Positions 19,260 to 23,662 of a stretch of 64,000 bases of DNA are shown piece by piece; within the stretch, counting starts at the first letter, position 1, and every line of letters starts with the position of its first letter. The notes beneath the pieces are model-generated. The model did no database searches. It saw only the letters and a program-made list of their open reading frames with translations, and was not told the origin of the DNA. Position numbers and translations under genes: made by a program. The stretch comes from a virus: positions 64,001 to 128,000 of IMG/VR virus record IMGVR_UViG_3300035698_017437. One strand, 5' to 3'.

Positions 19260-19748
19260 ATGACGAATTTGCTTGAATTTATTCCTGAGGAACTTTTGGC
19301 TCCACATTCTATTGATGATAGATGGTATACTTCCAAATTTTATAATTTGAAGATTATGCCTTGTAGATCTATGGGTTGTAGGGGAGAAAAGATAGTTGAA
19401 TCAATATATTCCATTTTTGAAAGAGATGTATTGAAAGCATTGAATAAGGGACATGATAGACTAATTGATTCCAAGAAAGTTGAAATAAAAACCTCAATGG
19501 TAAGTAAAGGAAAGAAAGAGAAATATAGTTTCCTTCAAATCCGTCCTTCAGATGATTATGAAGTGATTATATTCTTTACTATCAATTATGATTCTTGTTC
19601 CTTTTATGAATTGACCAAAGAGGAAGTGCTGGAACGAATAGAGAATGGATTATTCAAACGTCAACATTTAGGAAAGAATGGAGATTCAGGCACCTTTTCA
19701 TATAATGGCACTATGGAGAATCTTGGTGCTAGGGAGATTGTTTTTTGA
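19260..19748 (+). CDS. putative type II restriction endonuclease (PD-(D/E)XK)
   Basis: GHDRLIDSKKVEIKTS, FLQIRP.DDY; overlaps the MTase start. Confidence 0.65.
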   Translation: MTNLLEFIPEELLAPHSIDDRWYTSKFYNLKIMPCRSMGCRGEKIVESIYSIFERDVLKALNKGHDRLIDSKKVEIKTSMVSKGKKEKYSFLQIRPSDDYEVIIFFTINYDSCSFYELTKEEVLERIENGLFKRQHLGKNGDSGTFSYNGTMENLGAREIVF

Positions 19749-20827
19749 GCAAAAGACATACTTCACAAGATTTTCAACAAGCCAATGGACAATATTATTC
19801 CTCTAATACCGGAACTCTCTTATCTGGTTTTGAGAATTTCCTTGATAATATGAATATCATTGAGCCTTTTGCTGGAAATAAAGATCTAATAAACTGGACT
19901 ATTGAAAATTGTGATAATGTTTCTTTTTCAATGTATGATCTATATCCAACTGATGAGTCAATAACAAAAAATGATTCAATAAAATATCCTCCTTATAAGG
20001 ATGAAAATGGTATAATATCAAATCCCCCTTATCTTTCAAAGAACAAAAGTAAAGATAAGGAAGTTTTTGATCAATGGAATCAAAGTGATTTATATAAATG
20101 CCATCTTGCTTCAATAGTTGATAGTAAAATAGAAGGGGGTATTCTAATACTTCCATCAAATTTTATAAGTGAAAGCAGATCAAAAATAAGAGATTTATTT
20201 TTCTCAAAATATAAGATAGAGATGATCAAATATTTCTCTTATCCAGTTTTTGATGATGCAACGACAGGAATTATATCTTTCTCTTTCTCTTTATGGAAGG
20301 AAAAAAATGTTATGATTATTCCTTTTCATTTATATTCCAGCGAAAATGTAGTAAAGGTCAAAGAATATTCTTTGATTAGGAAATATGGCTGGTTAGTAGG
20401 AAAGAATTTCTTTGATTATATTTTAGAAGATGATTATCCTTTGAAATTAGAAATGTTGGAAGAACAACCGCAATCTAATTCAAATATTGTTATCGGTTTA
20501 TTGACAAATGGTAAATATTGTTTGGGAGCCCATTATAACGAAAAGGAAGCAATACGATCTAATGGGAAAGCATTTACAACATATCAAATATTCCTGAATA
20601 ATGACCTTTATTTATCTGAAGACGACCAAAAAGCTATTATAAAAAGATACAATAAGGTATTGAATGGTTTTATTGAAGAATATTCAGGATTATTCCTTGC
20701 CAATTATATGGGAGCAAACCAGAAAATCAAGAGTAGAAAATACTCAAGCCTTTTATTGAGTAGATGTATAAAGGAAATAAAAGGTATATACAAAGAAAAA
20801 AACGATTTATCTGAATTTATGACTTGA
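19745..20827 (+). CDS. N6-adenine DNA methyltransferase (gamma-type motif order)
   Basis: GQYYS, IIEPFAG (motif I), IISNPPY (motif IV), ILILPSNF. Confidence 0.88.
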   Translation: MSKRHTSQDFQQANGQYYSSNTGTLLSGFENFLDNMNIIEPFAGNKDLINWTIENCDNVSFSMYDLYPTDESITKNDSIKYPPYKDENGIISNPPYLSKNKSKDKEVFDQWNQSDLYKCHLASIVDSKIEGGILILPSNFISESRSKIRDLFFSKYKIEMIKYFSYPVFDDATTGIISFSFSLWKEKNVMIIPFHLYSSENVVKVKEYSLIRKYGWLVGKNFFDYILEDDYPLKLEMLEEQPQSNSNIVIGLLTNGKYCLGAHYNEKEAIRSNGKAFTTYQIFLNNDLYLSEDDQKAIIKRYNKVLNGFIEEYSGLFLANYMGANQKIKSRKYSSLLLSRCIKEIKGIYKEKNDLSEFMT

Positions 20828-20902
20828 CTTCTGATTCTATACATGGTATAATAGTATATACAGAATGAGAAAGATACATAATTCAAAGTGGAGAAACCCA
20901 TG
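20824..20902 (+). promoter_or_regulatory. early promoter/leader cassette copy
   Basis: TTGACT-17-TATAAT...AATGAGAAAG...TAATTCAAAGTGGAG. Confidence 0.9.
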
Positions 20903-21271
20903 AGACTTTCAAAAACAAGTGATTATATTGAGATTGATGAAAATGAAGATGTTGAAATTCTGTTCCTTTCAGATGAAGAATGGCAATCAAGTTTGAGTAA
21001 TAAATCTGCTTTAGCTTCTGTAAAGGATGAGGTTGCCTTTGCTGTAATGTCTGAGGAAATAAAATATTCAAGAATATTCGTCAATATAGATAAAGTTTAT
21101 GGAGTAGATTATGAGGTTGTTATTGCCCATGAATATTCACATATTCTTTTTCATGAAGTAGATGAAGAGAAAACAGATAGAAATTGTTTTCAATTTCTGG
21201 TAGAGAGTGAAATTGGTTGGTTGAAAAGTCAATGGGAAATCCGTCATGGACATAAATTTGAGGAGATTTAG
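20900..21271 (+). CDS. HExxH protein (putative Zn metallopeptidase)
   Basis: VIAHEYSHIL...E..TD. Confidence 0.5.
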   Translation: MRLSKTSDYIEIDENEDVEILFLSDEEWQSSLSNKSALASVKDEVAFAVMSEEIKYSRIFVNIDKVYGVDYEVVIAHEYSHILFHEVDEEKTDRNCFQFLVESEIGWLKSQWEIRHGHKFEEI

Positions 21272-21499
21272 AATGTTTGAAAAAGAACCTAAAGGATCAA
21301 TGTTTTTCTATTCTGGAAACACAAACAGAAAAAATAATGAGAATTGGTTCCAGTTCTCAGGAATTTACCAATTACAGGAAAAAAGGAAAATTGAAGATGT
21401 TTTCTGTGACATAATCAAACTCAAAGAAGATGAACTGAAAGAACAAGTTGTCCTCACAAGCATGAATAAAATATAATAATATCTTTGGAGGATATTAAG

Positions 21500-22141
21500 A
21501 TGAGTGAAATTTCAATTACAAGAGCTTTAGTGAAAATCAAAACCCTTCGGTCTAAGATAGAAAAAGGATCAAAGGCAATGGCAGTTTGTTCAGGATATCA
21601 AATTCAGGGACAACCAATTATTACAAGAGCTGGTCAAGTAAAAAATGCTGATATTCTTCAAACAGATATTAGTAAACGATGGCAAGCTGTGAATGATTTG
21701 ATGGATCTATATATCAAAATTCGAGAGGAGATCCAGAAATCTAATGCCGTTACTTTAGTTACAGTTGGAAAAAATAAAATGACCGTAGCAAAAGCCATTT
21801 TCATGAAAGAATTAATCTCGGATGAACGAGTTCCCCTTGCCTCTGTTGTTCTGAAAGATATCAATAACTCTAAACTACTGGTTCAGAAAAGGATAGAGGA
21901 TAATGATGAACGACTAACCGAACTTATCAAAAGCTCATTTCAAGGGAAATCAACTAAAATCTCTGATTCTGAATTTGAAGCAATTGCCAAACCTTTCAAT
22001 AAGAATAACAAAGTTGAATTCATTGATCCTTTTGGTATGGAAACAAAAATTGAAAAGGTTATTAATCAAAATGAAGAATTCCTTGAGGATATTGATGTTG
22101 TGTTAAGTGAATCTAACGCAAAAACAACGATTGAAATATAA
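21500..22141 (+). CDS. coiled-coil protein, DIP1984-like
   Basis: ISITRALVKIKTL...IQKSNAVT.V...MTVAKAI...DVVLSESNAKTTIEI two-repeat helical pattern. Confidence 0.6.
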   Translation: MSEISITRALVKIKTLRSKIEKGSKAMAVCSGYQIQGQPIITRAGQVKNADILQTDISKRWQAVNDLMDLYIKIREEIQKSNAVTLVTVGKNKMTVAKAIFMKELISDERVPLASVVLKDINNSKLLVQKRIEDNDERLTELIKSSFQGKSTKISDSEFEAIAKPFNKNNKVEFIDPFGMETKIEKVINQNEEFLEDIDVVLSESNAKTTIEI

Positions 22142-22175
22142 GGGGAGTCATATCTAACAGATATAAATAAGTACA

Positions 22176-22476
22176 TAAAGTATTATATTGAAACTGACTA
22201 AAAAGATATTCTCCTCAAATTGGAATAAGAGGTTAACATAAATTCCGCAACTAATTGCCTCAAACGCAATCTATTGATACAGCCTATAAAGCTGAACCGT
22301 TTCTGTAAAGTTTACAAAATCAAAAGATTAATGTTCAACAATTAGCGAGAAAAGTTTATACAATTACACCAAGAAAAATTAGAGAATAAAGATTGATTGA
22401 ATCTTGTGTATGGGTTTAGTAGGAAATTAGAATATCACGTCCTCAGTCAGTACCATCAAGCTGATAGAATACTTTA
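22176..22476 (+). ncRNA. structured RNA of about 300 nt downstream of the coiled-coil gene
   Basis: nested long-range pairs taaagtatt/aatacttta, ctgact/agtcag, gatattct/agaatatc, actaa/ttagt; TATAAATA at 22162; no ORF. Confidence 0.7.
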
Positions 22477-22484
22477 CTTTTTAT

Positions 22485-22561
22485 GGCGCAATAGCCCAAT
22501 TGGCAGAGGCAATGGTTTTAGAAATCATGTGTTGTAGGTTCAACTCCTACTTGCGCTACCA
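22485..22561 (+). tRNA. tRNA-Leu(TAG), short variable loop
   Basis: ggcgcaa/ttgcgct, atggt-tttagaa-atcat, ACCA. Confidence 0.85.
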
Positions 22562-22662: not shown

Positions 22663-22730
22663 GTTCCTCAGGAGGCAGAGTCGATGACTTAATCATATTG
22701 TCGGAGATTCGAATCCTTCCTGAGGAACCA
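22663..22730 (+). ncRNA. degenerate tRNA-like element
   Basis: ttcctcagga/tcctgaggaa-CCA, TTCGAAT T-loop, shrunken atga-cttaa-tcat arm, no D stem. Confidence 0.5.
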
Positions 22731-22837: not shown

Positions 22838-22999
22838 ATGAAAGAAGAAAAGACAGTGAATAAAGAAAAGAAGCCTTATACCTCTCCTAAACTTGTTATC
22901 TTTGGTTCTGTCACAGAACTAACTCAAGGTACAGGTGGATCATGTTATCCTCCTCAACCTCCTGGCTCTCCAGGTATGCCTTGGGATCCTTGCTCCTAA
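22838..22999 (+). CDS. RiPP precursor-like peptide with lasso-type leader
   Basis: KKPYTSPKLVIFGSVTELTQ|G matches YxxPxLxxxGxxxxxTx-G. Confidence 0.8.
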   Translation: MKEEKTVNKEKKPYTSPKLVIFGSVTELTQGTGGSCYPPQPPGSPGMPWDPCS

Positions 23000-23056: not shown

Positions 23057-23662
23057 ATGAAATATTCAGTAACTAAAAATGGCGAAGCTTTATCTACTAA
23101 ACTTTATTCCTTTGATGAAAAAACCAGAACATTTTCTTCAAACGAGGAAGGTCTTGTTTTGGATTTCCATACTTTACATTGCGTTACATTCAATACAGGA
23201 TCATCTTGTACATTCAATACAGGATCATCTTGTACATTCACTACAGGATCATCTTGTACATTCACTACAGAATATAATTGTACATTCAATATAGGATCAT
23301 ATTGTACATTCAACTGTGGATCAGATTGTACATTCAAAACTGGATCATTTTGTACTTTCAAAACTGGAATATATTGTACATTCAATACAGGATCATCTTG
23401 TACATTCAATACAGGATCATCTTGTACATTCAATACAGAATATGATTGTACATTCAATACAGGAGCACATTGTATATTCAATACAGGATCCGATAGTGTA
23501 TTCCTTACAGAATATGATTGTACATTCCTTACTGGGTCTAACGGTGTGATTGTCCGTAGAGATATTTTAGAAGTTATTCATCTAGAAGCGGATGTACCAA
23601 TTGTACTGAATGGATATGAAGAAATGGGATACAAAGAGGTAAAGCAGTCAAAAATGAAATAA
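23057..23662 (+). CDS. octapeptide-repeat (CTFNTGSS) beta-solenoid protein, paralog 1
   Basis: about 15 tandem 24-nt units; N-terminus shared with ORF 37718. Confidence 0.8.
   Translation: MKYSVTKNGEALSTKLYSFDEKTRTFSSNEEGLVLDFHTLHCVTFNTGSSCTFNTGSSCTFTTGSSCTFTTEYNCTFNIGSYCTFNCGSDCTFKTGSFCTFKTGIYCTFNTGSSCTFNTGSSCTFNTEYDCTFNTGAHCIFNTGSDSVFLTEYDCTFLTGSNGVIVRRDILEVIHLEADVPIVLNGYEEMGYKEVKQSKMK
23180..23540 (+). repeat. 24-bp coding tandem repeat
   Basis: unit tgtacattcaatacaggatcatct. Confidence 0.9.

Follow-up and report, generated by a model that had tools for sequence, protein, structure and literature searches.

A DIP1984-fold protein gene with a dedicated structured RNA directly behind it is widespread in phages and bacteria

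Introduction

What is encoded by 343 bases of phage DNA (22142-22484) that lie between the gene for a helical protein and a trio of tRNA genes and in which the largest open reading frame (ORF) has no more than 46 codons' worth of amino acids (≤46 aa)? The question was raised by a 64,000-nucleotide stretch of DNA, here referred to as the window, which comprises bases 64001-128000 of a 142-kb IMG/VR phage record that is ~78% complete. The window contains 13 tRNA genes, and its DNA similarity to known phages is confined to tRNAs. According to an original prediction made for this sequence, the gap is an ORF-free region, which agrees with our finding of no ORF above 46 aa, and encodes an RNA of no known class that is closed by four nested long-range helices around an A-rich tract with a loose 7-nt periodicity. 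Together with the preceding gene, described as DIP1984-like, this RNA was proposed to form a two-component protein-noncoding-RNA system in which an oligomeric helical protein binds repeated RNA units.

We report here that the gap holds one member of a widespread and undescribed module, which consists of a DIP1984-fold protein and, immediately downstream of its gene, a dedicated RNA of ~300 nt. A full-text search of the literature returned no description of either the RNA or the protein.

Results

Setting of the locus in the window

The features of the gene, the RNA, and the adjoining tRNA are compiled in Table 1. A sigma-70-like promoter (21448-21477) lies just 5' of the partner gene, and no terminator-like site was found between the gene, the RNA, and the tRNAs. 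The RNA starts 35 nt past the end of the gene (22176 versus 22141); the TATAAATA box that had been pointed out behind the gene is found in this spacer, at 22161-22168. The tRNA trio that begins at 22485 consists of tRNA-Leu, tRNA-Gly, and tRNA-Met.

TABLE 1 Coordinates of the partner gene, the RNA with its structural elements, and the adjoining tRNA in the window
Feature	Position	Strand	Remarks
Partner gene	21500..22141	+	213-aa helical protein, phrog_1491, DIP1984 fold
Structured noncoding RNA	22176..22476	+	301 nt, first to last base of P1; bounds taken from P1
P1, 5' strand	22176..22188	+	12/13 pairs with 22464-22476
Junction UGAAAC	22189..22194	+	Family consensus CGAAAAC
P2, 5' strand ACUGACU	22193..22199	+	7 bp with AGUCAGU 22445-22451
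P3, 5' strand GAUAUUCU	22205..22212	+	8 bp with AGAAUAUC 22429-22436, loop of the 3' hairpin
H-type pseudoknot	22213..22247	+	S1, CCUC 22213-22216/GAGG 22229-22232; S2, UGGAAU 22221-22226/AUUCCG 22242-22247
Conserved GGUUAA	22231-22236	+	Within the pseudoknot region 22213..22247
Single-stranded A-rich tract	22304..22391	+	88 nt; degenerate array, ~12 heptad-length units, 4 with full AAAG
3' domain	22398..22463	+	UGAAUC 22398-22403 (family AAAUCC); AGCUG 22459-22463 (family GGCUG)
P4	CUUG 22403-22406/CAAG 22457-22460	+	3' domain
3' hairpin	AGGA 22421-22424/UCCU 22440-22443	+	3' domain
P1, 3' strand	22464..22476	+	Pairs with 22176-22188
tRNA-Leu(UAG)	22485..22561	+	Begins 8 nt past the RNA

Several other features of this neighborhood were recorded, all on the + strand. 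The upstream neighbors are a gene for an Eco57I-type DNA methyltransferase-like protein (19745-20827; Pfam E 4e-6; phrog_18657) and one for a 123-aa protein (20900-21271) that has an HExxH motif (HEYSH) and fits no family. Between tRNA-Gly and tRNA-Met lies a hairpin-like element (22663-22729) with a 13-bp outer stem and a minimum free energy (MFE) of -31.6 kcal/mol (z, -5.6), which holds the T-loop sequence UUCGAAUCC followed by CCA. ARAGORN and Rfam do not call a tRNA at this element, which may be a degenerate or unusual tRNA-like RNA. Directly 3' of the tRNA trio, a 53-aa ORF (22838-22999) is picked up by lasso-peptide leader models, with 21.6 bits for NF033521 (cutoff, 19) and an E value of 1.5e-7 for lasso_cyano, slightly below the cutoff of that model. 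By Pfam, neither a lasso cyclase nor a leader peptidase was found in five of the larger ORFs in the 4 kb past it, and, judging by sequence, it looks like an orphan lasso-precursor-like phage gene. The 201-aa ORF at 23057-23662 is mostly a tandem array of a 24-nt (8-aa) repeat such as GGATCATCTTGTACATTCAATACA and matches no fitting Pfam, PHROG, or NCBIfam family.

The RNA accompanies the gene in phages and bacteria

A covariance model of the 3' domain of the RNA was built from 40 other phage loci, with the window left out. In the 64 kb of the window, it gave a single match below an E value of 1, which is located at 22384-22475 on the + strand (33.1 bits; E 1.9e-5), and the complete 142-kb source record contains one RNA match and one gene match. 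When applied to 54 viral loci, which included loci absent from model building as well as phiPsa374, the model matched exactly once in every one of them, downstream of the gene and on the gene's strand. A single + strand match, 200 to 330 nt past the gene, was likewise found in 68 of 71 bacterial loci with a homologous gene, none of which had been used in building the model. Scans of five whole phage records of 104 to 425 kb yielded one match in each, and in these records the RNA was never found behind another gene.

The structure that homologous genes were expected to have downstream is thus present, and the proposed two-component pair has strong genetic support, with the RNA following the gene on the same strand. 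These data show that the gene and the RNA are inherited together, as one pair per genome, and we have next to no doubt that the RNA and its linkage to the gene are real. Searches with Rfam in both gathering and E-value modes, covering the window and 40 relatives, returned tRNAs only, plus noise-level matches. No Rfam family, including any unrelated to the protein, matches the window; RAGATH-27, which is discussed below, is weakly related to the 5' end of the RNA as found in other lineages.

Comparative structure of the RNA

Folding of the gap as a single sequence showed no signal, with an MFE no better than that of shuffled sequences (z, -0.43), and hence the evidence for the RNA is comparative. 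The class was defined from 41 nonredundant RNAs, including the window's copy; its members are 300 to 470 nt long and have five or more conserved helices. The outermost helix, P1, has a median of 13 uninterrupted bp in these RNAs, and every column of it shows four to six of the six standard pair types. Among the 492 cells formed by its inner 12 positions, 413 are Watson-Crick pairs, 68 are G-U, 4 are A-C, and 7 are other combinations. This ratio of G-U to A-C (68:4) indicates that the + strand RNA is the selected form, rather than the DNA or the other strand. Within the class, P1 spans 9 to 28 bp and has YGAAA(A)C as its 5' flank and RGCUG as its 3' flank, a description that the window's copy fits (12/13 bp, UGAAAC, and AGCUG). 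The G-A-A directly past P1 is nearly invariant among the relatives.

P2 and P3 also occupy fixed relative places with varying sequences, as judged against shuffles in 24 unrelated RNAs (Fisher P values of 4e-8 and 1e-6, respectively). In the family, P2 joins the stretch that follows the junction to a segment close to the 3' end, and P3 joins the stretch that precedes the pseudoknot to a hairpin loop of the 3' domain. The pseudoknot topology is common to the relatives while S2 differs in nearly every locus, and the mean pseudoknot score is 27.3, compared with 21.1 (standard deviation, 2.9) in shuffles. In the family, P4 is a 5-bp stem that covaries: one of its pairs is UA in 23 RNAs, AU in 10, CG in 4, and GC in 2, and the next is GC in 16, UA in 14, CG in 5, and AU in 3. 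P1, P2, and P3 are nested, and P4 crosses both P2 and P3, which makes the core multiply knotted; the H-type pseudoknot adds another knot. The first ~75 and the last ~75 bases of the RNA interlock and hold out a long unpaired tract, with one to three variable hairpins sitting between the core strands. In the window, the pseudoknot, the 7-bp P2, and the 8-bp P3 are found at the relative positions typical of the family. A sequence-only model of the 5' domain (R2) gave no match in the window, and the assignment of these three elements consequently rests on structure.

With this architecture, most of the helices of the original prediction can be placed. Its first three long-range helices (22176/22476, 22194/22450, and 22205/22436) are correct to within a base or two and correspond to P1, P2, and P3, each of which recurs in the relatives at the same relative place with other sequences. 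The fourth (22241-22254/22416-22428) is not supported, since its bases are also claimed by pseudoknot stem S2 and by the 3' hairpin, which each show covariation in the relatives. A local aagatt/aatctt hairpin is in conflict with P4, which covaries, and with the AAAUCC motif, which is conserved and unpaired; a second hairpin, cagc/gctg (22280-22283/22291-22294), is possible but falls in the variable part of the RNA.

The GAAAAC of the J1 junction might pair with a conserved GGUUU of the 3' domain, but both sides are too highly conserved to support such a pairing by covariation. A hammerhead-like reading of the P1 junction (CUGA...GAAA), made by eye, was discarded; the AUGA part is not conserved. 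In relatives from five lineages (L005, L008, L022, L082, and L083), a complete tRNA gene is nested in the RNA, with the pseudoknot on one side and the heptad tract on the other. These tRNAs are specific for Thr, Tyr, Ser, or Asn or have an odd anticodon loop; if such a tRNA were excised, the RNA would be left in two halves joined by P1 to P3.

The unpaired tract is a phased heptad array

In the family, the tract held out by the core is built from units of the form N-U-N-A-A-A-G, most commonly with U at the third position, that follow each other in 7-nt phasing. Successive AAAG motifs are spaced by 7 nt (75 times), 14 nt (31 times), 21 nt (11 times), or 28 nt (6 times), and the bacterial copies have identical spacing peaks. 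The tracts comprise ~3 to 16 units, often ~6 to 7 or ~11 to 12, and with a unit number this variable, an arrangement as a closed ring of fixed size is not favored. The tract of the window agrees with the class in place and length (88 nt) but has only four full AAAG motifs. Its same-base autocorrelation peaks at lags 7, 14, and 21 (0.40, versus 0.25 to 0.33 between the peaks); taken by itself, however, this period is within chance (P = 0.17 for lag 7 and 0.055 for lags 7 and 14 combined). The loose periodicity proposed earlier is therefore clear in the family but not significant in the window's tract alone. In a set of 20 distinct T5-like RNAs, hardly any variation is seen in the tract, in contrast to the hairpins near it.

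A tandem array of this kind brings to mind VIPR, a system of the Vipr RAMP protein and its vrRNA (bioRxiv 10.64898/2026.04.26.720920) that, by analogy, is the nearest precedent in concept, as there, too, a phage-encoded protein goes with an RNA whose tandem short repeats are capped by a conserved part containing a pseudoknot. The two systems differ in the protein (a RAMP/RRM fold versus the helical DIP1984 fold), in the repeat (5 nt of the form GGY/NN with hypervariable NN versus 7 nt), and in the RNA (arrayed RNAs of ~100 nt with hypervariable positions versus a single RNA of ~300 nt whose tract is conserved among close relatives). Could the RNA nevertheless act as a guide in the manner of VIPR, with the protein holding the conserved bases of each unit while the variable positions 1 and 3 read a nucleic acid target in a gapped code? 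The alternation of conserved and variable positions and the pseudoknotted part adjoining the repeats, both in a phage-encoded RNA with a phage-encoded protein, would be in keeping with this. We nonetheless regard it as highly improbable, as VIPR guides are hypervariable and the heptad tract is almost invariant in the T5-like RNAs, even where the neighboring hairpins vary, and as the protein does not have a RAMP/RRM fold, the units are of 7 rather than 5 nt, and there is one RNA per genome instead of an array. A hypervariable guide, in particular, was rejected in view of the conservation of the tract among T5-like phages.

The partner protein is predicted to have a DIP1984-like fold

The partner protein matches the phrog_1491 profile almost from end to end (E 9.6e-42; residues 1 to 213 on profile positions 2 to 209 of 211). 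The profile is labeled "tail fiber protein," which is almost certainly wrong, as the gene sits amid early and accessory genes. No family in Pfam, NCBIfam, or PADLOC fits the protein, for which only chance-level GatD/GATase matches were obtained, and DIP1984 is found as a weak profile match (E 0.055). An AlphaFold2 model (pLDDT, 84) consists of long antiparallel helices and small beta hairpins, and its top Foldseek match is PDB entry 3KDQ, DIP1984 of Corynebacterium diphtheriae. In an exhaustive comparison, 151 of the 152 residues of 3KDQ, and thus essentially its whole chain, aligned to the predicted model with a Z score of 11.9 and a root mean square deviation of 4.7; the next best entry had a Z score of 8.3. 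The two proteins share 13% sequence identity, and the phage protein is ~60 residues longer. The description of the protein as DIP1984-like is accordingly supported for the fold, as predicted, but not for the sequence family, where neither NCBIfam nor Pfam gives a match. The pI of the family proteins ranges from 5.3 to 9.4 and is thus near neutral rather than basic. The retron anti-defense protein Rad of T5-like phages was considered and is a different protein, with 189 aa and a Toprim domain.

A protein gene that is tightly paired with a repeat-bearing RNA, in phages and bacterial chromosomes alike, is also reminiscent of type III toxin-antitoxin systems, in which a repeat RNA encoded upstream of an endoribonuclease gene neutralizes the harmful protein. 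In the present case, the RNA comes after the gene and not before it, its units are of 7 rather than ~36 nt and are not separate processed repeats, and neither a nuclease fold, by structure comparison, nor a PADLOC match was recognized for the protein. Furthermore, the presence of the gene in many Lysinibacillus and Sporosarcina species makes it look like a kept cellular gene. It would therefore be surprising if the module were a toxin-antitoxin-like pair, and we consider the chances of this slim.

Distribution and genomic context

A large protein collection contains 189 relatives of the partner protein, with up to 38% identity, and 697 sequenced phage records encode a relative. They include T5-like phages of Salmonella and Escherichia, Pseudomonas Otagovirus, and phages of Vibrio, Klebsiella, Bacillus, and Erwinia. 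Nearly all of 80 viral loci that were fetched have an ORF-free stretch of 350 to 550 nt past the gene, several of them with tRNAs at its end, and BLASTN joins 72 of the downstream regions through a patch 160 to 260 nt past the stop codon. The 71 bacterial loci derive from many species of Lysinibacillus, Sporosarcina, and Solibacillus and from Paenibacillus, Clostridium, Moraxella, and others, and they are mostly away from tRNAs. The copy of the RNA in T5 is ~350 nt long. Among the matches listed from 440 T5-like GenBank records, most carry no annotation in the RNA region. In T5 st0 (L084; AY692264, 2344-3141), a 266-aa ORF, T5p083, is annotated on the strand opposite the phrog_1491 gene; it is probably a miscall, since the + strand protein is conserved over hundreds of phages.

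The phage copies usually lie in tRNA and accessory-gene islands, which hints that the module may serve in host takeover or in the conflict with defenses. The T5 copy is situated ~1.3 kb from the tRNA-rich region that is deleted in strain st0 and has been termed an anti-defense island (bioRxiv 10.1101/2023.03.15.532788). It is conceivable, if unlikely, that the RNA itself acts on a host component and that the protein is a chaperone or an unrelated cotranscribed gene. The heptad tract could then sequester an RNase or an RNA-binding protein of the host, as a decoy or sponge, or it could pair with anticodon loops, as N-U-N-A-A-A-G is complementary to C-U-U-U-N-A-N of tRNAs with UUN anticodons (Lys, Glu, and Gln). 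Besides the island setting, the unpaired state of the tract, its conservation among T5-like phages, and the tRNAs nested in the RNA of some relatives speak for such a role. The strict linkage of gene and RNA, which extends to bacterial chromosomes away from tRNAs, instead favors a direct partnership. As for anticodon pairing, the complementarity is a proposal of our own, and the commonest unit, with U at its third position, would need a UUA anticodon, which is missing from normal cells.

Discussion

The strict pairing of an elaborate RNA with one protein gene poses the question of what the two products do together. We consider it somewhat probable that the protein binds the RNA directly. According to this binding model, the gene, the RNA, and the tRNAs that follow would be cotranscribed, after which the RNA would be cut out. 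In the relatives, the RNA begins 3 to 35 nt past the stop codon, a distance too short to accommodate a separate promoter, and the transcript of the gene is thus its most likely source; in the window, RNase P cleavage at the 5' end of tRNA-Leu would set its 3' end. Copies of the protein would then bind along the tract, with each copy occupying one or two of the phased units, to give a ribonucleoprotein particle in which the RNA would serve as the main, high-capacity binding partner of the protein.

In many phages, the protein may additionally bind similar units near its own ribosome-binding site and so limit its own synthesis. Phased U-N-A-A-A units are present in the 50 nt before the gene start in 37% of 43 viral loci, compared with 4% of 369 other ORF starts (P = 1.6e-16), a sequence pattern compatible with a protein that recognizes units of this kind and curbs its own translation. 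The pattern lends indirect support to the original prediction of an oligomeric protein that would bind the repeat units. The leader units are not enriched in the bacterial copies and are absent in the window, and hence they are not a universal feature of the module. Besides the missing leader units, three observations count against the binding model as a whole: near-neutral pI values of 5.3 to 9.4 are not typical of RNA binders, arrays of ~3 to 16 units are at odds with a closed ring of fixed size, and the tract of the window is degenerate, with a period that alone is not significant.

The position of the RNA directly past a stop codon, its knotted fold, and the terminator-like hairpins (seen by eye) or tRNAs that come next in the relatives would also be expected of a cis-acting 3' untranslated element, which would need no specific protein partner and would guard the upstream mRNA from 3' exonucleases or steer how this mRNA is processed out of the tRNA precursor. 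An RNA of 300 to 470 nt with at least five conserved helices and phased repeats goes far beyond the needs of a stabilizer, however, and a purely cis-acting element would leave the repeat units without a role and would not explain why, in the five whole records scanned, the RNA never follows other genes. We therefore find this explanation improbable and return to direct binding.

Precedents for such binding exist among bacterial regulators. In Bacillus subtilis, TRAP at the trp leader and HutP at the hut leader act as oligomers that recognize short repeats arranged in phase on unpaired RNA, and HutP reads UAG followed by four spacer bases, which amounts to a 7-nt period. CsrB is an RNA with many sites that soaks up a single protein, CsrA. 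We think that the phrog_1491 module may, by analogy, work like TRAP, HutP, or CsrA/CsrB. TRAP, HutP, and CsrA have no sequence or fold relation to the phrog_1491 protein, and their RNAs are mRNA leaders or hairpin-loop sponges, in contrast to a knotted stand-alone RNA behind the protein's own gene.

With regard to RNAs, GOLLD and ROOL are large ornate RNAs of phages and prophages that are often found near tRNA genes. The phrog_1491-linked RNA resembles them as a large elaborate phage RNA of unknown function that adjoins tRNAs; it differs in having no Rfam match, in its smaller size, and in its obligate neighboring protein gene and repeat tract. A closer link leads to RAGATH-27 (Rfam RF03100), an orphan candidate small RNA of 86 positions with one annotated hairpin. 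Its consensus contains cCGAAAACUUuAAACUAuAAu, the junction motif after P1 in the heptad-repeat class, and in two relatives its weak matches coincide exactly with the 5' domain (13.8 bits in L045 and 16.1 bits in L062). RAGATH-27 has no match in the window at E values up to 10 and none above its gathering cutoff of 76.1 bits in the loci of the 40 relatives or in the five whole records. Coverage by the Rfam model is limited to the first ~86 nt, which is under a third of the RNA; as modeled, RAGATH-27 has neither a 3' domain nor a heptad tract, shows no pseudoknot and no P1-to-P3 pairing, and comes with no named partner protein.

A more specific scheme, which we put forward as very doubtful, is that the helical protein lines the heptad track on a clamp formed by the knotted RNA and that the particle recognizes a nucleic acid through the exposed variable bases. 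Within the same very doubtful scheme, the candidate partners would be the anticodon loops of UUN tRNAs (Lys, Glu, and Gln) or, similar to VIPR, a gapped target in DNA or RNA. If the tRNA variant were true, the particle would shield or replace the targets of host anticodon nucleases.

Taken together, the one-to-one association of an elaborate conserved RNA with a protein suggests a ribonucleoprotein that has not been described before. Even in T5, after seventy years of study, the ~350-nt copy of this RNA is unannotated, and the module is spread over ~700 sequenced phages of several families as well as Lysinibacillus, Sporosarcina, Solibacillus, and other bacteria. Both of its parts are directly testable in T5 and E. 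coli, and such a ribonucleoprotein would provide a first functional context for both the orphan motif RAGATH-27 and the proteins with a DIP1984 fold.
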